IMG/VR virus record: IMGVR_UViG_2061766007_000806
Length of the DNA: 56,460 nt
Source of the DNA: an uncultured virus (IMG/VR IMGVR_UViG_2061766007_000806)
Taxonomy: Duplodnaviria; Heunggongvirae; Uroviricota; Caudoviricetes
Strand: one strand, 5' to 3'
The stretch's first letter is position 1. Every line of letters begins with the position of its first letter. This document shows, in pieces, positions 1-53,452 of this stretch. Below the pieces are notes generated by a model. That model was given only the letters and a program-made list of their open reading frames with translations. It made no database searches and was not told the DNA's origin. Position numbers and translations under genes: made by a program.

Positions 1-662
1 GCTAATCGTCTGAGTACAGGCATTAATCTGTTACCCACAGCGCTAGCATAGCTTCCCATGGTACGGGTATTCTCCTCACGGACATCCTTCATATGTTCTA
101 AGCCTTCAGATACACGCTGAGCTTCTTCCTCTTCCTTTGCATATGCCTGACCTAACAGGTTGATTGTCTGGGTCAGCTCATGGATGCTTGCGCCATTATC
201 TTTATAAGCCTGTGTGTCCCTACCCTGTGTATACGCTGTACCTGAATCACGCATCTTGCGCATCTCATCATATACAGAGTATTGCCTCTCGTAGAAGCTA
301 GCTAACTTACGCTCTTCCTGATTGAACACATCCGTATGTCCGAGACCACGACTTCTTAAGCCCTCGAGCTTAGCCGTAGTGGACTGAACATATCTGTCAA
401 GCACCTTGGCTTCTGCTTCAAGCTTGGCAAACTCTTGTGTAGGGAACTTAGCCTTGCCGAGTTCTTCTGTGGAGTGAACCACACTATCTAACTCTTTTGT
501 AAGAGCCGAGATATTCTTGAGCGCATTAGCTGTACCTTTATCGAGCTTGGACATGTCCACATTGCTGAGCGTAGACTGTATCTTCGCACTCAGGGCTTTG
601 GCGTCTTTTATAGCATCGTCAGTATTGATGTGCATATTGAAATTTAACTGTTCATCAGCCAT
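1..662 (-). CDS. Tape measure protein, N-terminal part (runs off window edge)
   Basis: ATG at 662 overlaps the Gp15-like stop; open helical frame MADEQLNFNMHINTDDAIKDAKALSAKIQ... to the window edge; canonical position after tail chaperones. Confidence 0.75.
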   Translation of the reverse strand, partial: MADEQLNFNMHINTDDAIKDAKALSAKIQSTLSNVDMSKLDKGTANALKNISALTKELDSVVHSTEELGKAKFPTQEFAKLEAEAKVLDRYVQSTTAKLEGLRSRGLGHTDVFNQEERKLASFYERQYSVYDEMRKMRDSGTAYTQGRDTQAYKDNGASIHELTQTINLLGQAYAKEEEEAQRVSEGLEHMKDVREENTRTMGSYASAVGNRLMPVLRRL

Positions 663-7749: not shown

Positions 7750-8797
7750 TTAATGCGCCCTTACACCTGTGAAATTGAATTGGAATCCTCCATCGGGACT
7801 ACCTGCATCGGGTCCAGGTGTAGGTGCAACAAATTCAGGTACAACCACCTTCGGCTGTTCGGGCTGTTGGGGCTGTGGAGCGGGTTCAGGAGCTTTCTCA
7901 ACGACTAACGCATCAGGATTTTCAGCGAAGTACTTCTCAGCAAAGTCGTCTCTGCCAAGAATCTTGCCATCCTCCATCTCAAGCTTACGGGAAATCATTG
8001 ACTGTGTGAAGTCACGTCTCGCTGCCTGTGAAGAGAAGTTCTTTGTCTGTGCGTATTCTTTTACGGCAAACTCATAAGCCTGTGCCTTGAGCTGATTCTG
8101 ATATGCCTGTACATCGGCATCATACTTTTGCTGTAAGCCTGTCATCTGTGCATTCAGCTCTGTGAGCTTCTGTGCGTCCTGTCCAGCTTCACTAAGTTGC
8201 TTTTGGAGATTAGCAAGGTCTGTATCNNNNNNNNNNCAACGCATCGGGATTTTCAGCGAAGTACTTCTCAGCAAAGTCGTCTCTACCAAGAATCTTGCCA
8301 TCTTCCATCTCAAGCTTACGGGAAATCATTGACTGTGTGAAGTCACGTCTCGCTGCCTGTGAAGAGAAGTTCTTTGTCTGTGCGTATTCCTTTACAGCAA
8401 ACTCGTAAGCCTGTGCCTTGAGCTGATTCTGATATGCCTGTACGTCGGCATCATACTTTTGCTGTAAGCCTGTCATCTGTGCACTCAGCTCTGTAAGCTT
8501 CTGTGCATCCTGTCCAGCTTCACTAAGTTGCTTTTGGAGATTAGCAAGGTCTGTATCACGAGTAGCAATAGTCTCATTCAGCTTGGTGATTTGACCATCT
8601 CTTCCTGTAATCTCAGCTACCTTTGCTTCAATCTCTCCGTCTTTTGCTTTGAGGTCGGCATCATACTTGGACTTACTAACATATTTGCCATCTGAAAGGT
8701 CGGCGAATTTTCCACCACCAGCCTTAACTGCGGCTTCAAACTGTTCGTAGTTCAGTGTGCCGTTCTCGGAAGCGTCGAAAATGTCTTTGATGTTCAT
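7750..8797 (-). CDS. Capsid scaffolding protein (Phage_GP20-like); internal segment duplicated across a gap
   Basis: YVSKSKYD...TIATRDTDL..L motif, coiled coil, Pro-rich tail ending FQFNFTGVR; two allelic copies around gap 8227-8236. Confidence 0.85.
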
Positions 8798-8799
8798 TC

Positions 8800-8985
8800 T
8801 CTTTGTTCTCCTTCTGACAATCATTTATATCTGTTATTTGTACATGCGGTTTACAGTTTCCGCTTGATTGTGCTCTGTTTAATCGTCCACAGCTCGACAG
8901 CGTGTTAAGCTCTTTTTAAAAGGTGGGGTATGCCCCCACCATTATGGAGAGCAAAAGTAGACATTCCATCCACTTCCACGCAATT
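8800..8985 (-). ncRNA. Structured 5' leader of the scaffold-capsid operon (candidate GP20-type cis-regulatory RNA)
   Basis: ~190 nt non-coding leader with hairpins GGTGGGG-GCATA-CCCCACC and GCGG-AAACTGTAAA-CCGC. Confidence 0.4.
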
Positions 8986-18318: not shown

Positions 18319-18844
18319 CTATAATGTCTGTATCAGTGCTTCAGAATGTGCATCGGGTACGCCTTTGAAGTACTTGTTGAGCACTCGCTGCGCAAGATAT
18401 TTGAACTTCCTACTGTGTAAGAAAAGTGTCATAGATGACTGAAGCTTCTGTGCATCAATTATCCCGAACACCTTTACAGGGTTGTTTGTNNNNNNNNNNC
18501 TTGAACTTCCTACTGTGCAAGAAAAGTGTCATTGATGATTGAAGCTTCTGTGCATCAATTATCCCGAACACCTTTACAGGGTTGTTTGTAGATAGTCTGA
18601 GGATGGCTTTCATGCACTCTTCGAGGTTCTTGGCAAGATAAGGATGGCTTGCAAATCTTCTCAGCTCGCTACGGCTCTGTATCTCGTAATATTTTGCCAT
18701 CTCTGAGCGACCTAAGCCCTTTATCTGTGGGAATGTATACCACATCCAACAGCTTATCTTCTTGCCCTTCTTCAGTTCCTTCATTACATCGTCATGGTCG
18801 TATTTCTGTGCATCTATAAATCTCTTTATCCTCAAATAAATCAA
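18319..18844 (-). CDS. DUF1810-family protein (internal duplication at gap)
   Basis: RFIDAQ...ELKKGKKISCWMWYTFPQIKGLGRS..AKYY...DAQKLQSSMTLF. Confidence 0.85.
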
Positions 18845-19650
18845 CTACCTCTCTGTGCTTTTATAGCGTTATATTTGTTATTGTACATGTTGATTGCACC
18901 CATATCCAAATGGTATCTGTTCGGGTCAAATACCGTATCCCAAAGCCTGTCGTCAGCCTTTACTGTGGATACGTTCTTTCCACCCTTGGCAACCAAAGTT
19001 ATCTTGTTTCCTGTTCGGTCATAGACCTTTAAATCATCAACAGCCTTAAAGAGCTGTGGTATTACGGTCTGTGCCTGTTGGCTCGCCTGTATGATTCTCG
19101 GAAGGGGAACTATCCTACCTTCTCTTGCGTATCTATCAAGAGACCCCTCCAAGAGTGAGTTAGGGTCAGCCGTCATAAACCTCATCTTTGTGGTATATCC
19201 TGCCTGTGAAGCCTGATTAACCTTTTGCAAAAACTGAGGAAGTCTGACAGCCGTGCCATCGAGTACAACAGGATAATCGTTAGCAATGGCAATCTCATAT
19301 AACCTCTTCTGAAGCATTACGCTCTCGTTGTGATAATATGTACTTGTTTTGTCGTCAAGCTGTGTCTTACCCGTATCNNNNNNNNNNATTGCTACCTTTT
19401 GCTCTCCATCCTTGTACGGGCGATGTCCACTGAACACTTCCTTGATAATAGTGCTGTGGAGCTTCCTACGCTCGGTACTAAGGTTATCTCTTCTGTGATT
19501 CAGGTTATCCCTTACAGAGTTCTCGTTCTTGTCATTTACGCCATAAGAAATATCGTAAGGTGACAGGTTATTTGCCTTACCATAGCTGACACGCTTACGT
19601 CCCTGAGGGTCTGTCCAAAAGAATATATCTAATTCTGTATCAGTAGCCAT
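18841..19650 (-). CDS. Zeta-toxin-like P-loop kinase
   Basis: YHNES, VVLDGT, R...GRIVP, VYD motifs; the Walker A piece FTGGGPASGKST...ILDADALK lies on misplaced contigs 17301-17427 and 21189-21315. Confidence 0.75.
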   Translation of the reverse strand: MATDTELDIFFWTDPQGRKRVSYGKANNLSPYDISYGVNDKNENSVRDNLNHRRDNLSTERRKLHSTIIKEVFSGHRPYKDGEQKVAXXXXDTGKTQLDDKTSTYYHNESVMLQKRLYEIAIANDYPVVLDGTAVRLPQFLQKVNQASQAGYTTKMRFMTADPNSLLEGSLDRYAREGRIVPLPRIIQASQQAQTVIPQLFKAVDDLKVYDRTGNKITLVAKGGKNVSTVKADDRLWDTVFDPNRYHLDMGAINMYNNKYNAIKAQRGS

Positions 19651-19662
19651 ATCCTGTCTCCT

Positions 19663-19914
19663 TTATACGTCTCCAAGTGTCGGGGTTAATCCTTTAGCTA
19701 TCTTGTTAGCAAAATCAGCCACGTTCAGCCGATAGCTCTTATACTCAGCTTCCGATTTGAAGTAATTCTCGCCTCGGAGCTTCTTACCATCTTTTACATC
19801 CTCATACGCCAAGCGCTCTATCTCGCCATATCGGTCGGAAGGTATCGTCTTTAACTCCTGACCTGTAATCGAAATATCGCCTGTAGTATAGTAGTTAAGC
19901 AAATCTTTGGTCAA
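19663..19914 (-). CDS. Hypothetical protein directly upstream of zeta-like kinase
   Basis: GGAGGTG RBS, TTG start, 83 aa. Confidence 0.55.
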   Translation of the reverse strand: MTKDLLNYYTTGDISITGQELKTIPSDRYGEIERLAYEDVKDGKKLRGENYFKSEAEYKSYRLNVADFANKIAKGLTPTLGDV

Positions 19915-19932
19915 CGCTGTATCACCTCCTGA

Positions 19933-20232
19933 TTAATCAGCGCACACACAACGGCGACCATACTCAACAAATCTGTAAGCCACAGGATACCATGTAATCT
20001 TGTCCGAAGAATATTCTAAGTACTCCTTGTGAGTGTAAACTTCGTAGGTAGCGCACATCTGATACAATGTGTGGCTGTACCTAGAACTCTTATCCACTCT
20101 GCATCTGAGATACTTCCAATATTCGTTCTCCTGAATGTTAAATACAATGTCCTTGAGCCTGTAATTATCGCTGTCCACGGGGTAAAATCCCCTGTCCCTC
20201 ATAATAGCCGTTGTAAGCTCGCTTCTCTTCAT
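19933..20232 (-). CDS. Hypothetical protein
   Basis: AAAGGAG RBS before MKRSELTTAIMRDRG. Confidence 0.65.
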   Translation of the reverse strand: MKRSELTTAIMRDRGFYPVDSDNYRLKDIVFNIQENEYWKYLRCRVDKSSRYSHTLYQMCATYEVYTHKEYLEYSSDKITWYPVAYRFVEYGRRCVCAD

Positions 20233-20402
20233 AATAGTTTCTCCTTTTGTGAGTGTTCTGAGGTCTAAAAGTCTAAGGTTTTCGCTGACGCTAACACCTG
20301 TTGCATTATAACTTGCGAGTGATTTGACTTCGGTTTTAAGTTTCAGTTGTCCATCACCAAGAGATTTCAACTTATTACAACGTATTTCCTTGTTGTGATT
20401 AT

Positions 20403-20431
20403 ATAATAACACAGTATATAATGTTTGTCAA
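20403..20431 (-). promoter_or_regulatory. Sigma-A promoter with palindrome
   Basis: TTGACA-17-TATTAT; AACAC-N8-ATGTT at 20408-20425. Confidence 0.7.
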
Positions 20432-20436
20432 GTACT

Positions 20437-20889
20437 TTATTTATTTTTCTTACGGAGTGCGAGACCTTCCATAGCCCAAGTCTTTTCGTCGCCTTCAGGA
20501 AGTCTAGCAACCTCTTTTTCAAACACAGCAATATTCGCTGTGGGAATCTTGGAATAGTAAGCTAAGACCTGTTGACGTCTCTTTGCTCTCTTGAGCTGTC
20601 TAAGAACTACGGGATTGTTAGACATCTGTTCCTCGTACTTATCTAACAGCTCAGGGCTCATGTCCTTGAAATACTCCCAAGCCTTCTTAGCCTGAACTTC
20701 GTCCCTAGCTTCCTTGCCGTTAGGGTTAAGCTGAGCTATCTCAGCCGTACGCTTAGCAATCTGACGCTCCTTGGTGTCCTCGTTGTCCTTTGCTACGGTA
20801 CGATTATACGCATCCTGTTGACTCTCTCCATCATAGATGGGAACGTGCTTGCCGTTAATCGTAATCCACTGCTTAACTTCCTTTGCCAT
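20437..20889 (-). CDS. Protein with WITINGKHVP N-terminal module
   Basis: First ~55 aa homologous to 23738-24196; unrelated helical C-terminus. Confidence 0.7.
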   Translation of the reverse strand: MAKEVKQWITINGKHVPIYDGESQQDAYNRTVAKDNEDTKERQIAKRTAEIAQLNPNGKEARDEVQAKKAWEYFKDMSPELLDKYEEQMSNNPVVLRQLKRAKRRQQVLAYYSKIPTANIAVFEKEVARLPEGDEKTWAMEGLALRKKNK

Positions 20890-20902: not shown

Positions 20903-21605
20903 CTATACTATATCTACTGTGAGAACAGGAACACCGTTCCTGTCTATAGTCACAGCGACTATCTTATATGTAAGCCCACGGGCTAATGTTACCTCATGCT
21001 CTGTATTATCTGTAAGCATTGCTCTCGTGCCGATAGGTACTCTGATTATCATAAACACGGGGCGTCCTCCGAAAAAGTTATACTCAGTATTCTTTTGTTT
21101 GTTCGGCTTATATGATGTGCTGACAAATCCTAAATCCGTGAATGTCTTGCCGACTAATTCCAATGGATTGGCTGAATCNNNNNNNNNNGGCGTATAACAG
21201 CCTCTCCTTGAGCGCATCTGCATCAAGGATTACAGGATTGTCATCATTCTGATAATATCCCTTTGCATCTCTAGTAAAGGTACTCTTACCACTTGCTGGA
21301 CCACCACCTGTGAACNNNNNNNNNNAGTACTCATCATTAACCTCCCTGTCCAAAGCAACGGGATATTTGGTCTGTTCCATCTTGCCGTCCATTCGGTTGA
21401 TGACTTGCTGCTCTGCATTGAACAGTGGCTCATGCTTCCTGAGCTTCTGATTGATAATCACGCCCTCAAGTGTGCCATGGTATCCTTTGACCGTTCCTGA
21501 TTTGGTCAAGCCTCCGGGCATCTCTTCAAATGCACCTCTGTTGGACGTATATACCATATAGAAATTACGGGAATCCCTGTCTAACATAGAATCGCTGAAG
21601 TCCAT
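20903..21605 (-). CDS. VIP2/C3-like (R-S-E) ADP-ribosyltransferase, interrupted by a misplaced contig
   Basis: INQKLR...ALDR (21326-21605) plus FTDLGFVSTS...TEHEVTLARG (20903-21178). Confidence 0.75.
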
Positions 21606-29196: not shown

Positions 29197-30153
29197 TTAA
29201 TCTTTTGTAAAAGCTCCAAACTTTTCTTCAATATTCTTCGGATTGCCCTTAAAGAACACTAATACGTTTTGGTGATGGCGTCCTACCTTCCTTGATTGTT
29301 CAAAGTACTTCGGGCATCTGACACCCAAACTCATTATCCTGTTCTCTAATATCATCTCGTTATAGAACTTATAGCCACAGTCTGTAAACGCCTTGATAGT
29401 GTCGGGCACGAATCCATACATTATGCCGTTAGGGTCTCGTATCTCCTCTACCACTATAACTGCAAAGCTGTCATCCTCAAGGATGTTGTATGCCTGATAT
29501 ATAATGTCCCTGTACTTACCACGGAACTGTTCGTATGTCTTGCAAGCGCTTAAATCCCTCTCATCGTCCGAATAGATTTCAAGGTTATAGTACGGAGGGC
29601 ACGTAAGTAACATGTTGTACTTCTTCTGCGCATAGTCTAGGCACTTTATCTCGGCTAAACTGTCGCCACATATCCACGTCGGCTTGCCAAAATCTTCAGA
29701 CTCGTACAGCTCTGATATTTTCTCCCAATTTTCTCTATTAGCTGCAACCTGAACCTCATTCAGGTCTACACCGTAATAGTCTCGTCCAAGTATCGCCGAC
29801 ACAGCTCCTCTCACATGTCCACCTGCGAATGGGTCGAACACTGTATCTCCCTGTCGGCTGAACCAACGAACCAATATCTCACAAAGGAACGGGTCGAATG
29901 TACTGATGTTTCCATTGCGCTCAAGCCCCTTATAGCCAATATCATAATCGAACTTGTTGATATAAGGCGTGTTAGATTTAGCTGTTATGTTCCTGACGTT
30001 AGCTGACCTGTTCTTCAGTATGTACTCCCACTCGTTACGCTTCTTCAGCCACTCTCCCACCTGAGAATCTAAAATGGAAAAAGGGGGCACAAGATAGCGC
30101 TCCCGTAATGATTTAGTTGGTAATTTTAATCTTTCTTGAGTGAATAAAGGCAT
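29197..30153 (-). CDS. N4-C/N6-A DNA methyltransferase
   Basis: FDPFAGG SAM-binding motif and TCPPY catalytic motif. Confidence 0.85.
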   Translation of the reverse strand: MPLFTQERLKLPTKSLRERYLVPPFSILDSQVGEWLKKRNEWEYILKNRSANVRNITAKSNTPYINKFDYDIGYKGLERNGNISTFDPFLCEILVRWFSRQGDTVFDPFAGGHVRGAVSAILGRDYYGVDLNEVQVAANRENWEKISELYESEDFGKPTWICGDSLAEIKCLDYAQKKYNMLLTCPPYYNLEIYSDDERDLSACKTYEQFRGKYRDIIYQAYNILEDDSFAVIVVEEIRDPNGIMYGFVPDTIKAFTDCGYKFYNEMILENRIMSLGVRCPKYFEQSRKVGRHHQNVLVFFKGNPKNIEEKFGAFTKD

Positions 30154-31189
30154 GTTTTAACTCCTCATATGCTTTCGATTTCTTGATTGAGTAAAAGAAA
30201 TATGTGTCCCACACGTAATGTAAGTCGTGTATCGGATAGCCTGTCTCCTGTTCGAGCGTGTTGAGCAACACCTCAAGGCAATGGATATAATAATCCCTGT
30301 TATATTCTAGCACATCATGGTCGCAAAACCACACATATTCAGTCGCACATTTCCAACAGCAACCACATCGATAAGGCATCAAATCGATTGTGTAGTTCCT
30401 CATCGTTCTCCTCCTGAACAGCTTTCGGAATCTGTTCGGAGTCAGACAACTGATAGTCAATGGTAAATGCTCGGGCTCTTTCAGTAACAGGTCATATGCT
30501 GTTTGGAAGTTCTTGTTTGGTATGTACATTTGGAATGACGGTATTACTTTCTGTATGATTGCCTCGTACAGCTTCCACATTTCCACTGTATCGCCTGCGC
30601 ATACCTCAAAGGCTACGTCGGCTATGTGTGCTGTTTTGAATGTACCCACAGCTATCTTAGTACTTATGCCGTTCTTTATGCCCCAAGATAACGCCATGGT
30701 TGCCATTATCATATTCTTCATAGGGTGCTCTATCCAACAGTGCGTCCCCTTATAGGCTACGCTGTCAATATATAACGGGACACCTAGCTTCTCAGCCATC
30801 TTCTCGGCTACTTCCCACTCATCGTAGTAGGTCTTATTTAAACCCTTGATATGATAGGCGTACACGTTATAGCCAAGCTTCTGATAATGCCTTATGACGG
30901 AAAAGCTGTCTTTGCCTCCCGAATAGCACACAATGATGTTCTTAGAATCCATCTGAGGCAACGGAATCGGTGTGAAACGTTGCTCTTCAAACTCCATATG
31001 TGGGAACGAATACCCCGACATCTTCTCGAATGTCTTAAGAATCGGATAAAACGTGTTATCATATGGCTGAACAAACAGCTTCGGCTTTGGTCTCTTCGGC
31101 GGCTCGGAAAGCTCGGCATACATCCTCTCAAGGTCGGTAAAGATACAGGATAACTCATAATAATCGCTCGTATGCTTTATTGTCTGCAT
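30113..31189 (-). CDS. QueC-like PP-loop ATPase
   Basis: VCYSGGKDS PP-loop; TISC...CGCCWKC zinc site; EHPMKN where QueC has VPxRN. Confidence 0.7.
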   Translation of the reverse strand: MQTIKHTSDYYELSCIFTDLERMYAELSEPPKRPKPKLFVQPYDNTFYPILKTFEKMSGYSFPHMEFEEQRFTPIPLPQMDSKNIIVCYSGGKDSFSVIRHYQKLGYNVYAYHIKGLNKTYYDEWEVAEKMAEKLGVPLYIDSVAYKGTHCWIEHPMKNMIMATMALSWGIKNGISTKIAVGTFKTAHIADVAFEVCAGDTVEMWKLYEAIIQKVIPSFQMYIPNKNFQTAYDLLLKEPEHLPLTISCLTPNRFRKLFRRRTMRNYTIDLMPYRCGCCWKCATEYVWFCDHDVLEYNRDYYIHCLEVLLNTLEQETGYPIHDLHYVWDTYFFYSIKKSKAYEELKHAFIHSRKIKITN

Positions 31190-31996: not shown

Positions 31997-32157
31997 TCGT
32001 TTAAATCTCCATCATCATCGTCATCATTATCTTCTTCATCTTCCACTCTTCCACGTGAGCTAGGCTTCTTATCATCCTTCTCTACTGACCCACACATCAG
32101 CATACACATCCACTCAGCATCGCTCATACCTTCAGGTTTGTAAAACGTCTTTCCCAT
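31993..32157 (-). CDS. Small protein with acidic tail
   Basis: Manual translation MGKTFYKPEGMSDAEWMCMLMCGSVE...DDDDGDLNE*; fills the dnaX-holB gap. Confidence 0.5.
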   Translation of the reverse strand: MGKTFYKPEGMSDAEWMCMLMCGSVEKDDKKPSSRGRVEDEEDNDDDDDGDLNE

Positions 32158-34231
32158 CTGTCAAACTCCCTACGCAAAAACTATAAAGGTTCGCTTCAAT
32201 AACAGCCTTGGGATAATTGTCCCACTTAATGGCTGTATTAAGTGACAACAGCATCTTCAGCAACTCATTGCACTCGGTATAATAAAGGGCTTGCGTCATC
32301 CTTACTTCAATGGCGTCCTTGTAATAATTCGGAATCTGTGTAAATTCCAATGTTCCTGTAACGGCATATTTGCAAAGGTCAAGCACAAAATTCGTGAAAT
32401 TCCTGACAAACAGCTTCAGGTCTTTGCCCTGTTTATGTAAATCTTCTATGGTCGAAATAACCCTCCTAGGACTGTTACCGTCATTGTCAATCAGGTCATC
32501 CACGAGGTGTAGCATCTTGTCGTAATTGACTGTTCCGATTGCTGTAACCACATTCTCAACAGTAAGCTTATTAGAATAAGCTAAGCATTTATCCATCAAT
32601 GTAATGGCATCTCTCATACCTCCATCTGCTATTTTTGCGATATACTCAAGGGCATCATGTTCATATGTATATGTCTGTCCCATATCGTATGCTTCGTAAG
32701 GCTCATTCTCTAGGTTAAGTATCAACTGTAATCTGTCCACAATGCCTTGCTGACTTATACGCTGAAAATCGTATCTCTGTACCCTTGAAAGAATCGTCTT
32801 GGGTATCTTCTGTGGGTCTGTGGTACAAAAGATAAATATCGCCGTCTCAGGGGGCTCTTCAAGAAGCTTTAACATAGCTTGCCATGCTGAACCTGATAAT
32901 GCGTGGCAATTTCCTGTCACAAAAACAAAGCCCTCTGACCTAACAACTATCTTATGACTTGGAACTTTAACACAATAAACTGTTCCATCAAAGTACTCTG
33001 TTTCTACGGTCTTTTGTATCGCCTGACAAGATGAGTATCTAGAATCCCTTAAAAACACATTATAACGTGTTTTATATGTCTCCTTACGTTCATCCGACTG
33101 TGCCCTTAATCTTGCTGAATATCCACCCAATGTTGCCACTGCCATTACAAAATCGCTATTTTCCTTACAAGTTGAAATATACTGAACATAATTATCAGAC
33201 ACATATCCATCCCACTGTACAACTTCTTGAATAAATTCTCTTGCTGTAAAGTAATCAAAAGAATCTATACTGAAATGTGTAGACAACATCTTACTTGACG
33301 ATATTGGTAAGTCATAAGTGAATCTACGCACTCCATCTCTTCCCTTAATCTCAGAATAATGGATATTTCCACTCTTGCACAAATTAATAAATCTGTCCAC
33401 CTTACGCTGTTTTGTGAGTTGAATCGACCAATGCACATATCCACCTTTTTTAGATACTCTTTGAATCGTACCATCAGCCTGACTTGCAATAACAAGTCTG
33501 TCAACAGGTGTGAGTACTGTCTTGCTTCCTTTTCCACACCCTGCCACAATAAGACTAGCAATTTGGCTGAACTTAGTATCTTGGATATATTGCTCTCGGA
33601 TAGTTCCTGACCTATGATGATATAAAGGCTGTACATGATGTGGTGTCATTCTAACACTGCACCAATTTCTAGGAGACCACTTTACCAAATCTCCCTTATA
33701 GGGCATTCTTACCCACTCATGTGGACTGACAAATATTATGCTTCCATCATCGTTATACTGTGCGACTTGCTCTGTTCCATCACAAGCATCAAATCGCTTA
33801 AACCCTTGTGTTGTAAGGATTTCCACATCACCTGTCATACATTCGTCTACGATGAAAATCCTGTATTTACTCCCATCCAAGGTAGCCATACGGGATTGCT
33901 NNNNNNNNNNCTCATCAATGATGAAAATCCTGTATTTACTCCCATCCAAGGTAGCCATACGGGATTGCTGAATAATATTTCTAACATCATTGACGCTATT
34001 ATTGCTTGCTGCGTCCATTTCCATCGGGACACCCTGTCCCTGATTTATCTCATTGGCGAATATCCTCGCCGTTGTAGTCTTTCCTGTGCCTGCTCCACCA
34101 CAAAACAGGTAAGCGTGGCGTATTTCTCCACTCTCAAGCTGTTGAGACAGGATAGTTTTTACACTACCCTGTTCAACAACGTCATCAAATGTCTGAGGTC
34201 TGTATTTAACAGCAAGGGCTATTGTGCTCAT
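32132..34231 (-). CDS. dnaX: Clamp loader gamma/tau subunit (DnaX-like) with intein
   Basis: LAVKYRPQTF, GGAGTGKTT, MDAAS, IVDE|intein|CHALS, LLEEPP, TILSR, GGMRDAI. Confidence 0.95.
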   Translation of the reverse strand: MSTIALAVKYRPQTFDDVVEQGSVKTILSQQLESGEIRHAYLFCGGAGTGKTTTARIFANEINQGQGVPMEMDAASNNSVNDVRNIIQQSRMATLDGSKYRIFIIDEXXXXQSRMATLDGSKYRIFIVDECMTGDVEILTTQGFKRFDACDGTEQVAQYNDDGSIIFVSPHEWVRMPYKGDLVKWSPRNWCSVRMTPHHVQPLYHHRSGTIREQYIQDTKFSQIASLIVAGCGKGSKTVLTPVDRLVIASQADGTIQRVSKKGGYVHWSIQLTKQRKVDRFINLCKSGNIHYSEIKGRDGVRRFTYDLPISSSKMLSTHFSIDSFDYFTAREFIQEVVQWDGYVSDNYVQYISTCKENSDFVMAVATLGGYSARLRAQSDERKETYKTRYNVFLRDSRYSSCQAIQKTVETEYFDGTVYCVKVPSHKIVVRSEGFVFVTGNCHALSGSAWQAMLKLLEEPPETAIFIFCTTDPQKIPKTILSRVQRYDFQRISQQGIVDRLQLILNLENEPYEAYDMGQTYTYEHDALEYIAKIADGGMRDAITLMDKCLAYSNKLTVENVVTAIGTVNYDKMLHLVDDLIDNDGNSPRRVISTIEDLHKQGKDLKLFVRNFTNFVLDLCKYAVTGTLEFTQIPNYYKDAIEVRMTQALYYTECNELLKMLLSLNTAIKWDNYPKAVIEANLYSFCVGSLTDGKDVLQT
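32909..33841 (-). mobile_element. 311-aa intein with LAGLIDADG-like endonuclease region in DnaX Walker B
   Basis: Starts CMTGDVEILTTQG, ends VYCVKVP...FVTGN followed by Cys; IASQADG and VVQWDG helices. Confidence 0.9.
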
Positions 34232-40080: not shown

Positions 40081-40785
40081 CTAAAACAATCCTTTCCTGA
40101 CGTTATCAAAAATATTCTCCGTACTTGTTTTCGGACACGCCCCCTCTTGTTTCGGGTACGGGAGTATGTCGTATTTCAACTTAGCTAACAGCTCCTTCTT
40201 GCGCTTCTTATCACAGTTAAAATAGATGTACCTGTGCTTGTGTGACCTCTCCTTAGCATAAATATTAGCACCGTTAGCCATTGCCTTCTTTATGCCTTCC
40301 ACCCCACCATATCGCTCACTAACTGATTTGTGATGGAGCACTTTACCATCTTTCTCTATCTCCACATAGTCGGTATGGTTGCCTTGTGTGATGCCTGTGT
40401 AATAGAAATTCGTAGCCTGATATATTATGCCGACATGGTTATAACCTATATCGGAAAAGCTCACTATAATCTCCTTATCGAGCATCTTCAAGGTATTGCC
40501 GACTAAATAGGATTCCAAGTTCCTCTCTAAGCCGTCATCGACGTATAGCCTCGTAAGCTCATAGACATTGTACTTTTCTTCCACGCCACATATCTGTTCG
40601 CACAAACCGTTACTTACGGGACTTCCATAAATCACCACGCCCACAATTCGGTTCAGCTTCCTCGAAAATAATCCGAAAGCTCTCGTGTAGGGAGCTGCCC
40701 GGTGAGCGTAGTGGCACTTAATCACAATGTCGGTAGCTGTTTGGTAATTGACCTCCTGAATATAGTAATCGTCCTTTATGCTCAT
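40081..40785 (-). CDS. Mom-like (GNAT) DNA adenine modification acetyltransferase
   Basis: HY...FGLF...GVVIYG.P...ELTRL...SFSD...H.GIIYQATNFYYTG...KHRY. Confidence 0.85.
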   Translation of the reverse strand: MSIKDDYYIQEVNYQTATDIVIKCHYAHRAAPYTRAFGLFSRKLNRIVGVVIYGSPVSNGLCEQICGVEEKYNVYELTRLYVDDGLERNLESYLVGNTLKMLDKEIIVSFSDIGYNHVGIIYQATNFYYTGITQGNHTDYVEIEKDGKVLHHKSVSERYGGVEGIKKAMANGANIYAKERSHKHRYIYFNCDKKRKKELLAKLKYDILPYPKQEGACPKTSTENIFDNVRKGLF

Positions 40786-41816
40786 TCCTCTTCTTCCTCT
40801 TCATCTTCAAACTCAAGCTCGACACCATACCAACACTTGGATACAGTTACATCGCACTTGATTGGCATTCCTAATATCTTCTCAGCCGCATTACTCATTG
40901 TCTGTGCTAACAAGGCTGAACACTCCTTAGCATTGGTCTCAGGACATTCAGCTATTATCTCATCATGCACGGGAATCAGCATCTTAAATCCAAGTTCCTT
41001 CAGACGCTTGTTAGCAAACAGGTCTATCATCGCTAACTTGGTCAAGTCGGCTGCACTTCCCTGTATTCGGGCATTAACACACTGTCGGGTCGCTGACGCT
41101 ATCTTGGTCTTGTTGCTGACAATATCTATACCATCAGCCTCGGCATCAGCAAATATCTTTTCACGTTCCCTCTTGTATCGGGCTGACATCAGCCTGTTCC
41201 AATAATAATCACAAAGTTCATCGGGTACGCTATCATCCGAGATTGTATCAAAATCCAAAGGGTCGTCGTATGGGTTCTTCTGAGGGTTTATCCACTTGAA
41301 ATCATACTCAGGTAACTGTAAATCGGGTAATCTCCTCTTGCGCCCACACACGGTAGTTACATATCCGAGTTCGTGCGCCATCTCTAGGCTGTCATGCTCG
41401 AATTTTTTAATAGCTGGAAATCCTTGGAACACGGAGTCTTTTATCGCCTGTGCCTCGTCCTCCGAACAGTGTAGTTGCTCAGCGACGCTCGCCGTGCTTC
41501 GTCCGTACAGCACACCTAACAGGATACTCTTGGCATTGCCACGGTACAGCTTGCCTTCAGGATTGGTCTTATCAGTCTTGTTGCCATGCTCATCTAGATA
41601 GAACTCGAGACAGTCCACATAATCCCTGTGGAAAGACACGCTCGCTATCTCAGCATACAGGTCTTTACCCTCCATAAAGGTGTTATACATCTGTGAATCA
41701 CCCTGTTGCCGACATAATGCCGCTAAGCATTTGGGTTCTTGCTGTGACTTTTTATGTTAAGAAAAGTCACTACTCAATAGCACATAATTTCTACGAGTTA
41801 GTAACTTTTTTGACAT
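40782..41816 (-). CDS. polA: Family A DNA polymerase, C-terminal half, with in-frame TAA at 41757-41759 (candidate ribosomal bypass)
   Basis: [28 protein letters not shown]...DLY...[14 protein letters not shown] (motif B)...[10 protein letters not shown]...VHDE (motif C); GGGGGTG RBS before ATG 41816. Confidence 0.85.
41744..41770 (-). other. Stop-containing hairpin inside polymerase motif A (putative recoding element)
   Basis: GUGACUUUU-CUUAACAUA-AAAAGUCAC perfect 9-bp stem; codons UCU UAA CAU AAA AAG UCA. Confidence 0.75.
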
Positions 41817-42252
41817 CCATATCACCCCCTCGGTTAGACAAAAACTGCCCATTTTTCTTATCTCTTCGATTTTCTAAATCTAGCTTGTGATACTCTTTTT
41901 GATGTTCACTTCTAGTCGTAAGCTCAAGATTTTCAAACCTGTTATCCAATCTGTCACCGTTTTTATGATGTACCACTTCATCACTAGTCAACGGACGTCC
42001 TAAATGCTCTTCCATAACCTTACGATGTACAAAATATCTTGCACCTTTTACAGACACACACGCATAGCCATCGTATATGTAAGTTCTCGGCTTTCGGTCT
42101 CCTCCACGTCTATTAGCGATACCCATAGCCACTACTTTATGAAGTATGGATGATTGAGACCTGTTTAAGTGATTTGCGCATTTGACTACTCCAAGAGTTT
42201 CATAATTAGCAAACAACCAAGCTTCATCTTCTTTTGACCACCATTTTCGCAT
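41791..42252 (-). CDS. Free-standing HNH homing endonuclease inserted in polA
   Basis: VHRKVME.HLGRPL...[20 protein letters not shown]....H; N-terminal WSKEDE Myb/HTH-like domain. Confidence 0.9.
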
Positions 42253-42299
42253 ATGACTTTCACCCCCTTACAAGGAATATTCTATCACATAAAGGGATA

Positions 42300-43883
42300 T
42301 TATGCAAGACTTATTACATAACTATTATTATATTTGTCATACTTAAGTTGAATATCACAGATTGTAGCTTCAGTCCCGTCCTCGAACTTCAGTATATCAC
42401 CTACGCTTAGCTTAGATGCTAATTTCCAACCAGCACTTGTAACCACTTCACACCAACGCTCAACAACAATAGTGTTATCATGCTCCTCTACTTCTCGCTC
42501 TGAACAATCAGCCACAAAAGATTTACGAATATCGTGATTCTTAGAGGGCAAATTCTGCAAGTTGGGGTCGTTACTTGAAAATCGTCCTGTGTCAGCGCCA
42601 TACTGATTGAATGAACAGTGAATCCTGTTATCCTTAGCCTCAACACAATTTGGTAGCTTATCAATATAGGTGCTGACTAGCTTCTCAAACTTCCTGTACG
42701 CTAAGACAGCCTTGCATATCGGATGGTCGATACTACCGAGAATTGCTTTTCCTGTCCCTCTGATTGGCTTCTTGGTGCGCTTATCCACGCCTGCATCTAA
42801 CTTCAGTATATCAAACAGAAATGTCTCAAGCTGAGAAGGGCTAGCCACGTTAATCGGGACATCGAGCTTCAGTTTCGGATGCGCCTGTTTATACGCCTGA
42901 ACATCCTTCTCATACGGCTTCAACAGCTCGTGCAATTCCTTCAGTTGGTCATCCAACAGCCCATGATATTTGGTCGCAAGCTCCTGATTGTAGGCGAAGT
43001 CAAAAGCCACGCCTGTATCTTCCATGTCCACCACGACATTGACGATAGGCATCTCTATGTTCTGAAATACCCATGCTACGCCGTTCATGCCGTTCCTGTC
43101 CTCAGGTGTGGTTGTTGGGTCGTATGTCAAGTAGGGTCTTTGGAAGTCGCAATATTCTGTTGTAATCACAGGGTCATGCCCTGCATAAAGCAAGGCTGTA
43201 TCCAACGGGATGTTTGTAAAGGGTACTTTCTTGAACAGGTCGTCGAATGCAAAGGCATCGCCCTCTCCATGCAAGCAATACTTATTATGGAGCTGTTTCA
43301 AGCCCTTCTGAGACTTGGGCTCGTTTTCGTTCATCAGCCTTGAGCCTATAGAAGCGTCCCATGTGCAATAAGTATCTACTATCCCGAATGCCTTCATAAA
43401 CCGAATATCGAATGCTGCGTTGAACATATCTATATCAGGTCGCCACTTATAGTTCAATAATTCTTCAAACTCCCGTATGATTATCTCAGGAGGGAGCTGT
43501 CCCTTTATAAGCTCGCCTGTAATATAGTTTATGTGGTTTATTGGGATATATGCGCCCTTTTCTCCACGTCCGTTGATACAAATACCTGCTATTCTATGTT
43601 GAAACGGATTTAAGCCTTCCGTCTCGGTATCGATTGAAATATATCTGTTGTCACGACAAGACTTCAGGTAATTGTGTAGTTGTTCCTCGCCCATGATGAG
43701 AATGTGCTTGTCTCGATATTCTCCGAGTGCTGAATCAACCTTGTGAACAATATTCTGAATCTGACTAGCAAGACCTCCACCCCGTACTGAAGTGGAGGTC
43801 TTTTTAGCCTTGCTTTTTACCTTCTGAAGTATTGCCTTATCCTGACTTGCGCCCTGTCGTATCGGAACATCGAATAACGGCAT
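42300..43883 (-). CDS. polA: Family A DNA polymerase, N-terminal half (3'-5' exonuclease + thumb/palm start) with Hint-like tail
   Basis: SIDTETEGL, FNAAFD, YAGHD, TGRFSSNDPNLQNLP..IRKSFVA, then EVVTSAGWKLASKLSVGDIL. Confidence 0.92.
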   Translation of the reverse strand: MPLFDVPIRQGASQDKAILQKVKSKAKKTSTSVRGGGLASQIQNIVHKVDSALGEYRDKHILIMGEEQLHNYLKSCRDNRYISIDTETEGLNPFQHRIAGICINGRGEKGAYIPINHINYITGELIKGQLPPEIIIREFEELLNYKWRPDIDMFNAAFDIRFMKAFGIVDTYCTWDASIGSRLMNENEPKSQKGLKQLHNKYCLHGEGDAFAFDDLFKKVPFTNIPLDTALLYAGHDPVITTEYCDFQRPYLTYDPTTTPEDRNGMNGVAWVFQNIEMPIVNVVVDMEDTGVAFDFAYNQELATKYHGLLDDQLKELHELLKPYEKDVQAYKQAHPKLKLDVPINVASPSQLETFLFDILKLDAGVDKRTKKPIRGTGKAILGSIDHPICKAVLAYRKFEKLVSTYIDKLPNCVEAKDNRIHCSFNQYGADTGRFSSNDPNLQNLPSKNHDIRKSFVADCSEREVEEHDNTIVVERWCEVVTSAGWKLASKLSVGDILKFEDGTEATICDIQLKYDKYNNSYVISLA

Positions 43884-44548
43884 TAGAATACCTCTCTTCT
43901 TCCTCCATTAGAAGGTGTGCGTCTAGGTACTTCCTGAGCGCTCTGTGCCTGTGTTGCGCCCCTACGGATTATCGGCTGTCCCTGTCCACCTTCATTAGGA
44001 AATGCGCCTGTCTGAACATAGGTTGCAAGTTCATCGGCTGTCTTATCTAAGACGATTGTGCCGAATGCGTTAGGAATCTCCTCGAATGAATCAAGTGTTG
44101 TGTCATCCTGACCTGTCTCGAATATCTCATATGTTGTCTTTGTGTCGCCGGGCTTGCCTACTCTCTCAATCTCGAATGTGTGAGATACGAGGTTGGGGAA
44201 TCTTGAACAGATTGTGGAAATCTTAGCGCCGAACTGTTTTCCACGCTCCCACGACTGTACACGCTGTTCCTTGATATTGTACAACGGGATGAAATACTTA
44301 ACGGTTACGGGCATCTTTGCTGCACAGCAAGGACACACATCAATAGGCTGTCCATAGTCCCTGAGACAGTTCACATAACGCTTCTTACCGTCTACTTCAA
44401 TCTCATGTACGGCGTATCCCTCGACATCCTCAATGCCGTTTAACAGGAATCTCACCTGAGCTACTTCATGGTCATTCTTTAAGCCGAAAAATCCAGCTCC
44501 ACCCTGACCACCATAATTGTCGGCTTCATTTACTCCAAATCTTGCCAT
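43883..44548 (-). CDS. ssb: Single-stranded DNA-binding protein (gp32-like)
   Basis: FFGLKND...VRFL...H...C...CPCC...IERVG...TTYE. Confidence 0.75.
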   Translation of the reverse strand: MARFGVNEADNYGGQGGAGFFGLKNDHEVAQVRFLLNGIEDVEGYAVHEIEVDGKKRYVNCLRDYGQPIDVCPCCAAKMPVTVKYFIPLYNIKEQRVQSWERGKQFGAKISTICSRFPNLVSHTFEIERVGKPGDTKTTYEIFETGQDDTTLDSFEEIPNAFGTIVLDKTADELATYVQTGAFPNEGGQGQPIIRRGATQAQSAQEVPRRTPSNGGRREVF

Positions 44549-52657: not shown

Positions 52658-52686
52658 ATTATATACCATGTTTAATCAAATGTCAA
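52658..52686 (-). promoter_or_regulatory. Consensus sigma-A promoter with palindrome
   Basis: TTGACA-17-TATAAT; perfect AAACAT-N8-ATGTTT at 52654-52673. Confidence 0.85.
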
Positions 52687-53101
52687 GTACTTTTTTTAAA
52701 TCTTTTGGAAGGTCATCAAATTCGGGTTTGTTGATAAGCGTCCACATAAGTCCACACAGATTCCAAAGGATAGCCCTGTTATGTGGTTCATCCGTCCATC
52801 CGTCATACCATTTAAGAAGATGCCTGACAGTGCTATCTACGTAGCAATGCGTCGGGATTCCCTTCTCCCAATTCCTCTCAGCGTATTTACGTGCCCCGTT
52901 TTCATAGTGTTTTGAAAGCTCCATGAACGCCTCCCCAAAGTTATCGGCATATTCACGGGATATGAAAGCATTGATACATCTGTTGATTCGCTGAACATAG
53001 TTAGTGTCGGGGTCATGCACGATATGATTAAGCTCATTACAGATTACGTCTCCCACGACAGCCTTAGCCTTGTTAGGATTAGTATCCACGATTTGCTGAT
53101 T
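52676..53101 (-). CDS. DUF5664-like dATP/dGTP diphosphohydrolase, C-terminal part
   Basis: HYENGARKYAERNWEKG...DS..RH...DEPH.RA..WN; N-terminus at 56159. Confidence 0.75.
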   Translation of the reverse strand, partial: NQQIVDTNPNKAKAVVGDVICNELNHIVHDPDTNYVQRINRCINAFISREYADNFGEAFMELSKHYENGARKYAERNWEKGIPTHCYVDSTVRHLLKWYDGWTDEPHNRAILWNLCGLMWTLINKPEFDDLPKDLKKVLDI

Positions 53102-53111
53102 NNNNNNNNNN

Positions 53112-53452
53112 TCCTCAATAATATTGCCGATAATTTTTACTGTATCGCCCCAACTCTTAACAGCTACTCGGCAATGCTTTCCTTTTAATGATTGAAATCT
53201 TGCTACTCCAATAGTATCCATGATATGCATAATATAAACTAACCCTGAACCATTAGAACTAAACTCCTTTGCTCCAAGATAACCATGTCCCAAAGCAATC
53301 CCACCATAACAAACGCCTCCACACTCTAATTGCATTGGCATTCGCAATACTAAGCATCCATGGTCTTCCATATCTAAATCTGCTGCTTCAATATATGCAT
53401 TAACAATATGATATCCCGCCGTTATCAGTTCATCTTTTGTCCATGTTTTCAT
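53112..53452 (-). CDS. Hypothetical protein (partial; separate contig)
   Basis: NAYI...EDHG...YGG..L...IGNII; fused to DUF5664 only across the gap. Confidence 0.55.

Follow-up and report, generated by a model that had tools for sequence, protein, structure and literature searches.

Among bacteria and phages, programmed translational bypassing is not known to have been demonstrated outside gene 60 of phage T4 and its homologues. According to the 2016 review by Atkins and colleagues (PMC5009743) no natural hopping over an in-frame stop codon is known, and shorter counterparts of gene 60 have long been presumed. The text of the preprint by Manning and Atkins (bioRxiv 10.1101/2022.08.31.505936) states that the T4 MobA element is exclusive to the topoisomerase gene, and the word 'polymerase' is absent from it; it also describes exchange and loss of the endonuclease, a modularity similar to the one reported below. 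Here we present a locus that probably holds a short counterpart of T4 gene 60. The DNA analysed (the window) is the whole 56,460-nucleotide (nt) stretch of an uncultured virus of the Caudoviricetes, IMG/VR record IMGVR_UViG_2061766007_000806. Its polA gene, for a family A DNA polymerase, carries a stop codon and 15 extra nucleotides inside motif A of the active site, and the comparison with related loci points to a programmed hop of the ribosome from a UCU to a UCA serine codon, set in a homing-endonuclease cassette.

All features of the locus lie on the minus strand and positions are those of the whole window. Around the interruption this strand reads AAT TAT GTG CTA TTG AGT AGT GAC TTT TCT TAA CAT AAA AAG TCA CAG CAA GAA CCC. 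The initial annotation had reported a TAA and 15 extra nucleotides within motif A, and both are borne out by the letters and by a second assembly: an 8975-nt Logan contig from run X1 spans 40782-43883 with 0 differences from the window. X1 is the likely source sample, in which the assembler is independent and the reads are not, so that an assembler artefact is excluded, though not on independent reads. The extra nucleotides can be placed at 41748-41762 or, equivalently, at 41745-41759. Their deletion restores DFSQQEPK, as had been proposed, and this sequence is identical to that of an uninterrupted allele (P0003) and of 63 distinct intact relatives. The frame after the gap runs unbroken into an open reading frame (ORF) of 302 amino acids (aa) at 40782-41690, starting MYNTF, and the ORF list bears out the earlier statement that this ORF has no catalytic Asp. 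Downstream of the gap VHDE and a further motif are intact in translation; we take these conserved stretches to be polymerase motifs B and C, which the same annotation had called intact.

The gap is one part of a larger disruption that had been overlooked. The polA gene itself is in two pieces, parted between ...IRKSFVAD and NYVLLSSD by a free-standing gene for an HNH endonuclease, and the upstream half (N-fragment) matches Pfam DNA_pol_A_exo1 and positions 3-149 of 381 in the DNA_pol_A profile. The downstream half (C-fragment) has its own ribosome-binding site and start codon; the final 26 nt of the HNH gene overlap the start of its leader in a different frame, and an element like GGAGGTGAT precedes the leader in relatives also. 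The leader starting at 41816 ends at the TAA, and the motif A strand with the catalytic Asp is thus encoded in the leader only. As a result of the split, the last codon before the stop (take-off codon) is codon 19 of a separately initiated C-fragment. No start codon occurs from the gap to the ATG at 41690, so that the conserved QQEPK... codons can be reached only by ribosomes crossing the gap. The window resembles a whole phage genome, with terminase, scaffold, capsid, RecA, DnaB, primase, clamp, clamp-loader subunits, Mom and methylase. Among 62 ORFs scanned with Pfam there was no second DNA polymerase, while clamp, clamp loader, helicase and primase were present. Judged by these ORFs, the phage has no DNA polymerase gene other than the family A polA, and it is this gene that a mobile homing-endonuclease cassette has invaded.

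Uninterrupted forms of the same gene circulate. A protein-cluster look-up returned P0003, a 790-aa polA almost identical to both window fragments. In run X4, an independent sample, a 2053-nt contig aligns to 40782-41744 and 42528-43283, skipping 783 nt, and joins 41744 to 42528 through 54 other letters, equal to 18 codons as expected for an intact polA. Elsewhere this contig differs from the window at 39 of 963 and 27 of 756 bases, and the bases beside the insert are too diverged to align at 80% likeness. Such diverged, cassette-linked flanks are the expected trace of homing with co-conversion and may well have arisen in this way. A second carrier lineage has the same architecture, with an N-fragment (P0005) of 527 aa, 93% identical, and an HNH protein (P0007) of 153 aa, 95% identical, both encoded on a 3702-nt Logan contig; the lineage has the junction markers L, S, V and D in common with the window, and by our own count 10 of the 70 tail residues are different. 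When the polA locus was compared with GenBank phages by megablast, no match was obtained; the best cultured polA relatives, Clostridium phage phiCTP1-like and Streptococcus phage Dp-1, are 47% identical in protein, and the five closest IMG/VR relatives found by a single-protein search are intact. The closest IMG/VR contig, L009 (C-fragment 88% identical; protein P0013), has an intact motif A and a polA interrupted about 55 residues further on. From such positions the polA family seems to have been invaded at several conserved motifs.

The cassette is shared by 40 distinct sequences including the window, 19 of them from protein-similarity searches and 21 new ones from a degenerate pattern scan. 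The latter were preselected for a stop-like triplet and a W-S-N landing codon; the former are free of this query bias. In 40/40 a Ser codon with a stop directly after it is followed by the gap and then by a Ser codon of the same box directly before CAR CAR GAR, a rule obeyed by 19/19 of the protein-similarity set. The stop is TAG in 32, TGA in 5 and TAA in 3. The distance from take-off to landing is 4 nt in 1 sequence, 6 in 7, 7 in 18, 8 in 4, 10 in 2, 11 in 1, 15 in 3 and 16 in 4. It is not a multiple of three in 30 of the 40, and readthrough is therefore not the general mechanism. The take-off/landing pairs are TCT/TCA (27), TCT/TCT (6), TCT/TCC (2), and TCT/TCG, TCC/TCA, TCG/TCG, TCG/TCA and AGT/AGT (1 each). 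The UCN and AGY boxes are never mixed in a pair, though AGY codes this Ser in 24/63 intact alleles, and an AGT or TCG take-off can pair with an AGT or TCG landing. In every case (40/40) the landing codon is the first same-box triplet downstream of take-off. TCT is the take-off codon in 36/40 cassettes as against 3/63 intact alleles at this Ser, and the native codon most often found there is TCA (28/63), which usually serves for landing. Two relatives have 15-nt gaps like the window's: L047, with spacer CAGTGAAAG (TAA CAG TGA AAG, containing a second in-frame stop), and L202, with spacer CAATAAAAG (TAG CAA TAA AAG). Identical gap regions were recovered from three metagenomes (L097, L098, L099) and from two (L057, L061), so the gaps are not sequencing noise.

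Both flanks of the gap evidently are under purifying selection. The pooled pairwise ratio of nonsynonymous to synonymous change (pN/pS) in the 19 cassettes is 0.31 over nine conserved codons before the gap and 0.40 over twenty after it, these being uncorrected proportions with pS near saturation. The conserved leader codons vary mostly synonymously in the 39 other cassettes, with Val as GTG, GTT, GTC or GTA and the first Ser as AGT, TCT, TCA or TCC. A single tRNA-Ser (anticodon UGA, modified U34) reads both UCU and UCA. The hop from UCU to UCA over the stop-containing 15 nt, put forward in the initial annotation, is strengthened by 40/40 same-box codons and 30/40 out-of-frame gaps, and is the only reading that fits the comparative data.

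The same annotation had set the stop in a perfect 9-bp (base pair) stem and looked to related genes for a stop-in-hairpin with compensatory changes. The stem is real in the window, where 1/200 dinucleotide shuffles folds as well, and the stop is conserved in relatives; the stem is not. In an alignment of 12 sequences its pair at columns 67-92 is broken in 5, with essentially no covariation. L047 retains the stem with a U-G pair and, by eye, the letters of L202 permit the same pairing. Perfect 9-bp stems with loops of 3-12 nt occur 13 times (about 10 places) in the window against a mean of 2.45 in 20 first-order simulations, and, being about five times commoner than simulated, such a stem alone is not extraordinary. 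The gap hairpin also competes for GUGACUUUU with a different hairpin 5′ to the take-off codon, and this other one wins in a 75-nt fold.

It is this 5′ hairpin, spanning the leader, that is conserved with covariation. In the window it folds at -15.2 kcal/mol (z -3.81), and 0/200 shuffles do as well. From start to take-off codon the leader folds as one long hairpin in 19/19 cassettes (-11.5 to -19.1 kcal/mol, z -1.5 to -5.6), whereas the stretch of that length in 65 distinct intact alleles folds on average at -9.06 kcal/mol (mean z -0.32). The RNAalifold helix joins leader codons 3-5 with the Ser-Asp codons just 5′ of take-off. For the helix, 38 sequences were compared, leaving out L207 (upstream sequence missing) and L249 (a near-duplicate of L231). 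Five core pairs are intact in 38/38; one pair is AU in 19, GC in 17, GU in 1 and UA in 1, and another is CG in 19 and UG in 19. Altogether 85% of cells are paired, and a shift of the partner by 1-3 columns leaves 25-49%. In the co-varying pair one base falls on a synonymous third position (AGT, AGC, GCC, TCA); the other alters the leader residue (TTA, TCG, TCA, TTG, TCT).

The cassette has split polA and lengthened the N-fragment by a tail of 70 aa. It supplies the C-fragment with a Shine-Dalgarno sequence, a start codon and a 9-residue basic leader and, thirty bases past the split, sets 15 untranslated bases within motif A, after the Ser codon and before that for Gln (D-F-S / Q-Q-E-P). In the decoding that we propose, ribosomes would initiate at ATG 41816, read 19 codons and pause with peptidyl-tRNA-Ser on UCU and UAA in the A site. 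The tRNA would then release UCU, the mRNA would slide by 15 nt, and the same tRNA would re-pair with UCA; decoding would resume at CAG and yield the canonical DFSQQEPK active site. At take-off the last ~12 bases of the 3′ arm of the hairpin would lie inside the ribosome, their partners free behind it. Re-forming the outer 9-12 bp would require mRNA to be drawn from the exit side, and hence a forward slide; in length the buried arm agrees with the longest hop distance observed, 16 nt. Such an mRNA-pulling role has been proposed for the 5′ stem-loop of gene 60 in the preprints of Manning and Atkins and of Wills, Parsawar and Atkins (2024). The basic nascent leader, wholly in the exit tunnel at take-off, may help to hold the tRNA, like the nascent-peptide signal of gene 60. 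If the tRNA-Ser has anticodon UGA, the weaker U:U wobble at UCU as against the Watson-Crick U:A at UCA would favour landing. The two polymerase fragments would then assemble without a covalent link, and the gap may in addition break the target of the endonuclease and so protect the carrier, by analogy with T4 mobA. With moderate confidence we extend this to the whole family: an obligatory natural hop of 4-16 nt in the active site of a replicative polymerase, the first family of utilised stop-hops, programmed by leader hairpin and basic leader, in a modular selfish cassette (intein-like tail, exchangeable HNH or GIY-YIG endonuclease, leader and gap) that homes among polA genes of rumen and gut phages and in which the gap confers self-immunity.

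Other explanations account for parts of these data. A dead or dying polA, knocked out by the cassette and its 15-nt insert in a defective or recent variant and perhaps complemented by co-infecting phages with the intact allele, would agree with the selfish nature of the cassette, with the near-identical intact allele in circulation (P0003 and the X4 contig) and with one relative, L013, in which HNH is broken and the gene further fragmented. We consider it unlikely: open frames are kept in all pieces, a carrier lineage ~7% diverged in protein retains the same 527-aa and 153-aa ORFs, 40 distinct cassettes keep leader, Asp strand and post-gap codons under purifying selection, and chance inactivations would not every time take the form Ser-stop...Ser at a single codon. 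Readthrough, with UAA decoded as an amino acid and five extra residues in motif A, gains from the in-frame gap of the window and of 9 others (7 at 6 nt, 2 at 15 nt), and from the proteins P0061 and P0079, which read DFS-Q-SQQEPK as though TAG were Gln. It is made highly improbable by the out-of-frame majority of gaps, by the second in-frame stop of L047 and by the length of motif A, which is invariant in 63 intact alleles. Nor is a changed genetic code the answer, since all three stops terminate long ORFs in cassette loci (TAA 50, TGA 31, TAG 17) and the phage's only tRNA gene is a normal tRNA-Gln (anticodon ttg). Frameshifting by -1 or +1 at A AAA AAG or UCU UAG was rejected as well: the slippery run shifts the wrong way, re-pairing at CUU is poor, and 1-5 residues would be added to an invariant motif, their number differing with gap length. 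We give hardly any credence to removal at the RNA level, be it of the 15 nt or of the whole 0.77-kilobase (kb) insert, whether as a group I intron, as a micro-intron or through cleavage and ligation. Group I introns that harbour HNH genes are known from phage polymerase genes, and the gap does lie within a hairpin, but in 40500-44200 on either strand no Rfam family was found at E<=1 and no group I catalytic core. Moreover, the endonuclease has its own ribosome-binding site and the C-fragment its own conserved site and start, gaps of 4-8 nt cannot be introns, and splicing needs neither a stop nor a repeated Ser codon.

The remaining alternatives work at the level of protein. A three-piece enzyme that needs no recoding could form if the N-fragment, the leader peptide of 19 aa with the Asp strand and a C-fragment made from Met 41690 assembled non-covalently; a good ribosome-binding site precedes the leader, a stop closes it, and endonuclease-split enzymes, polymerases included, do assemble from fragments (PMC2677866; Manning and Atkins). 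The 19 codons from the gap to Met 41690 (QQEPK..., with the conserved Glu), however, have no start codon and are yet conserved as protein, and the same-box Ser duplication and the first-triplet rule would be left unexplained. We know of no precedent for a 19-aa peptide supplying a catalytic strand, and regard this explanation as very unlikely. Protein trans-splicing, in which the tail of the N-fragment would be half of a split intein that ligates the fragments, can appeal to the gene half-endonuclease-gene half layout, also described for 'fractured genes' (PMC2677866), and to the structure of the tail. This C-terminal extension (CTE) is beta-rich, occurs in no intact relative and has the consensus ...F.V.RW.EV.T..GW.YA..I.VGD.L... 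in 11 aligned CTEs. The best Foldseek matches of its AlphaFold model (pLDDT 81.9) are inteins, at a weak E of 0.017, and its best VIA alignment is with the MchDnaB-1 intein (Z 6.7, root-mean-square deviation 1.8, 55 residues aligned), interspersed with phage tail-hub barrels; a VIA Z below 8 is common among unrelated small barrels. No Pfam match was found for the CTE. The marks of a split intein are absent: the residue after the CTE Trp is C, S, I or T, with no conserved nucleophile, and the junction residue varies likewise in the 11 CTEs, while the C-fragment leaders of 8-10 residues end in N, S, Q or P before Tyr or Lys, with no conserved C-terminal Asn followed by Cys, Ser or Thr. The tail is also too short for a Hint domain, and ligation of the fragments would leave the gap unsolved. 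Trans-splicing is thus scarcely tenable, and on its model the CTE, weakly like the N-terminal half of the Hint fold of inteins, is possibly a degenerate remnant of it, not an active split intein. A separate idea, that the target had been duplicated, came from the likeness of the N-fragment's last residues, SYVISLA, to the motif A strand and was dropped, as only ~12/27 bases agree by eye.

Some points count against the ribosome hop or narrow its basis. For the 21 pattern-scan sequences only the choice within TCN and the leader are free observations. The cassettes are related, and covariation counts are not independent events; kinship inflates these statistics, which leaves the helix well supported while its function, like the roles of the nascent leader and of immunity, is one we infer. 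L013, the AGT T AGT case (4 nt), whose locus shows a disrupted HNH gene and one split more, may be a copy in decay. The single RNA run compared, X13, covers 43125-43715 only, far from the gap; neither it nor DNA run X8 reaches the cassette, and so they have no bearing on the gap. A tRNA-Ser with anticodon GGA reads UCU and could not re-pair with UCA, and the phage itself supplies no tRNA but tRNA-Gln. UAA is recognised by both release factors. Synthetic stop-hops in E. coli reportedly reach ~1%.

Table 1. Features of the interrupted polA locus in the window, with positions counted from its first letter
Feature	Position	Strand	Remarks
polA N-fragment ORF, 527 aa, TAA stop	42300..43883	(-)	3′-5′ exonuclease and first part of polymerase domain; ends ...NLPSKNHDIRKSFVAD, then 70-aa extension
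CTE of N-fragment, CSEREVE...YVISLA	42303..42508	(-)	From alignment with P0003; homologous in all cassettes, not in intact alleles
Free-standing HNH endonuclease gene, 153 aa, own ribosome-binding site	41791..42252	(-)	Pfam HNH_3, E 2.4e-15
Shine-Dalgarno GGGGGTGAT of C-fragment leader	41821..41829	(-)	4 nt to ATG 41816; inside 3′ end of HNH gene
C-fragment leader mini-ORF, 19 codons, ATG 41816 to TAA	41757..41816	(-)	9-residue basic MSKKLLTRR, then motif A strand with catalytic Asp
Conserved 5′ hairpin spanning leader	41762..41809	(-)	3′ arm ends at first base of take-off codon; core AGUUA (41802-41806) with UGACU (41765-41769)
Take-off codon TCT (Ser)	41760..41762	(-)	TCT in 36/40 cassettes
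In-frame TAA stop	41757..41759	(-)	Directly 3′ of take-off codon; stop present here in 19/19 cassettes from protein-similarity searches
Gap spacer CATAAAAAG, remainder of untranslated gap	41748..41756	(-)	Related spacers in two other 15-nt gaps
Landing codon TCA (Ser)	41745..41747	(-)	First TCN triplet 3′ of take-off; decoding would resume at CAG 41742-41744
Perfect 9-bp gap hairpin of initial annotation, 9-nt loop, arms GTGACTTTT / AAAAGTCAC (GUGACUUUU / AAAAGUCAC)	41744..41770	(-)	-7.5 kcal/mol, z -3.86
polA C-fragment from landing codon, motifs B and C, TGA stop	40782..41747	(-)	Pfam DNA_pol_A, E 8.4e-43

The family was assembled by several routes. A search of IMG/VR with a polA alignment gave 80 loci, of which 66 are intact by regular expression, L069 is intact with QQEV, L009 is interrupted elsewhere and 12 have the cassette. 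With a GIY-YIG alignment, 16 of 80 loci carried the cassette (10 on new contigs), and the other 64 were GIY-YIG genes elsewhere. The degenerate pattern scan of metagenome contigs returned 72 matches, namely 34 polA cassettes (21 new and distinct) and 38 unrelated sequences; among the unrelated, 31 are one conserved soil protein (...HHPLEKQG...QQEPN..., L180 and 30 loci), matched through TGG TGG, and 7 are others. A search for proteins of the size of the C-fragment gave 770 matches at E<=1e-40, many on 40-105 kb contigs. Among the best 120 of the 770, 78 begin 3′ of QQEP, past the active-site Glu, 22 begin in the landing frame and lack the Asp, 18 have D[FY]S[QS]QEP and 2 read DFS-Q-SQQEPK. The landing-frame starts carry peptides such as MFLCQVTILESQQEPK, the +1-frame reading of YVLMSSD. 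Such start positions suggested that one and the same codon holds short inserts, many of a length not divisible by three, and the DNA of the relatives bore this out. Two landing-frame proteins, P0108 and P0116, have N-termini MFLC.VTFRRLQQEPK, with Leu instead of Ser before QQ, and may represent a variant with a different take-off or landing codon. P0061 and P0079 read MSSDFS-Q-SQQEPK, as if the gene caller had read the gap TAG as Gln or TAG had mutated to CAG; if real, this would be a two-residue insertion in motif A. Protein P0119 has a cassette leader and no gap (MRKLLTRKQYVMMSSDFSQQEPK...) and encodes directly the product expected from the hop; a search for its DNA returned only intact alleles or already known gapped ones.

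The common order of parts is an N-fragment with homologous tail, an endonuclease or none, GGAGGTGAT, a start codon with a basic leader of 8-10 residues (MKKLLTRKN, MKRSIRTRKS and MKKSIRVRKN, for example), the motif A strand as Y-V-[LM]-[LM]-S-[SA]-D-[FY]-S, and the stop. Many cassettes sit on 50-70 kb contigs, on very different polA backbones. The endonuclease is HNH in the window and L008, HNH broken in two in L013, and GIY-YIG by Pfam in L016, L031, L047, L048, L057, L060, L061, L067 and L068. L024 has none, and its tail runs into ...VTNS*, the same ending as that of the HNH protein of the window. In L013 (1110-3432) the N-fragment stops earlier (...SSSEPNL...), HNH follows in two ORFs, and MFVA plus the tail form a separate 79-aa ORF, which leaves polA in at least 4 pieces. 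An extra ORF stands between N-fragment and GIY-YIG in L060 (232 aa, 1924-2622; no Pfam match) and in L068 (189 aa, 763-1332), and the cassette can therefore carry cargo. No cultured phage with the cassette was found: in tblastn the GIY-YIG protein of L016 reached at most 42% identity, in other contexts, and the HNH protein at most 37% over most of its length. Against IMG/VR the HNH protein gave one weak partial match, and an HNH alignment gave none in JGI metagenomes; the exact 27-mer of the gap hairpin was not found in IMG/VR, and a search with the CTE region returned the window's own protein as the sole match.

Other features of the window lie outside the cassette. A Mom-family protein (40081-40785, minus strand) is encoded directly downstream of polA, and with a weak QueC-like ORF (30113-31189, minus) and a dATP/dGTP diphosphohydrolase-like ORF (52676-53452, minus) it hints at modified bases in the phage DNA. 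In the clamp-loader (DnaX-like) ORF at 32132-34231 (minus, 699 aa) the AAA part covers residues 42-108 and a delta-prime-like rest 436-492; the ~326 intervening residues have no Pfam match even at E<=1 and could represent an insertion, element or domain, that has gone unrecognised. ORFs 18841-19650 and 21108-21605 (both minus) each hold part of one Zeta_toxin / AAA_33-type kinase domain (profile positions 13-57 and 68-191) and are separated by three small ORFs of no known identity (19663-20889), and this pair may be another split gene. ORFs 7750-8313 and 8210-8824 (both minus) overlap in different frames and both match Phage_scaffold, which could reflect a frameshifted or duplicated scaffold gene. 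The window contains 1223 N letters, from 2071 on, and part of the structural-gene region is unreadable.

With ~40 natural variants of one hop site, which differ in distance (4-16 nt), frame, stop and codon pair and share a co-varying hairpin, the family amounts to a natural set of mutants with which the causes of ribosomal take-off, sliding and landing could be tested. Annotation is concerned as well, as gene callers list these polymerases as truncated or frameshifted, and the family suggests how a selfish endonuclease can occupy an essential gene at its most conserved motif and leave the carrier alive. A full-text literature search found no paper on bypassing in phage polA; the supplements of Manning and Atkins could list further elements.

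The design of the cassette appears to be the same as that of the T4 39-mobA-60 element. In both, the gene of an enzyme essential for replication is divided at a metal-binding motif by a free-standing homing endonuclease, both halves carry conserved tails, and the flanks are diverged and cassette-linked. An untranslated gap follows early in the second half, with a stop right after take-off and a matched landing codon, and it persists while the endonuclease is swapped or lost. A stem-loop 5′ of take-off and a basic nascent peptide are likewise common to both, as far as the T4 element is described in the sources cited here. The two differ in target gene, group of phages, length of the gap and codon, and homology was not detected: BLASTP against the T4 60.1 product and the 37-aa mobA remnant (the T4 copy being defective) gave no similarity. 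T4 interrupts the large subunit of topoisomerase II at the Toprim motif, with a 50-nt gap, Gly codons or Asp, and take-off at codon 46; no such Toprim-motif insertion was found here, where the host gene is Pfam DNA_pol_A, the split precedes motif A, the gap is 15 nt in the window (4-16 in relatives), the codon is Ser and take-off falls at leader codon 17-20. T4 has a take-off stem-loop, an internal Shine-Dalgarno-like element and a barrier to forward slippage, whereas the stem-loop over the present gap is not conserved. The cassette occurs in rumen or gut phages that have Gram-positive-type ribosome-binding sites and are not T4-like.

Other systems share single traits with the cassette. The synthetic stop-hops in E. 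coli (Weiss et al. 1987, as cited in PMC5009743) have matched codons flanking a stop, decode 9 nt as one amino acid and are triggered by a slow stop in the A site. This 9-nt form occurs naturally as TCT TAG TCA in 6 relatives and as TCG TAG TCA in one, and these 6-nt relatives would be the counterparts in nature of the synthetic stop-hop; in the window 18 nt are involved (TCT + 12 + TCA). As presented in that source the synthetic hops are engineered and low-level, whereas the hop in the cassette would be obligatory, accompanied by a conserved hairpin and leader, up to 16 nt long and in any frame. The 'byps' of Magnusiomyces capitatus mitochondria, as outlined by Manning and Atkins, are likewise short mobile inserts in essential genes, neutralised by bypassing between matched codons; at 27-55 nt and 81 per genome, however, they spread like GC clusters, are not linked to an endonuclease and involve an undecodable sense codon rather than a stop. 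In nrdA of Aeh1 split by mobE, in the split gp43 of T4-like phages and in fractured genes, an HNH, GIY-YIG or Vsr endonuclease stands between gene halves whose tails aid their joint function (PMC2677866; Manning and Atkins). Those endonuclease-split genes need no recoding, whereas here the second half of polA contains in addition a gap with a stop, and the N-fragment's tail is at most the degenerate relic of something like an intein.

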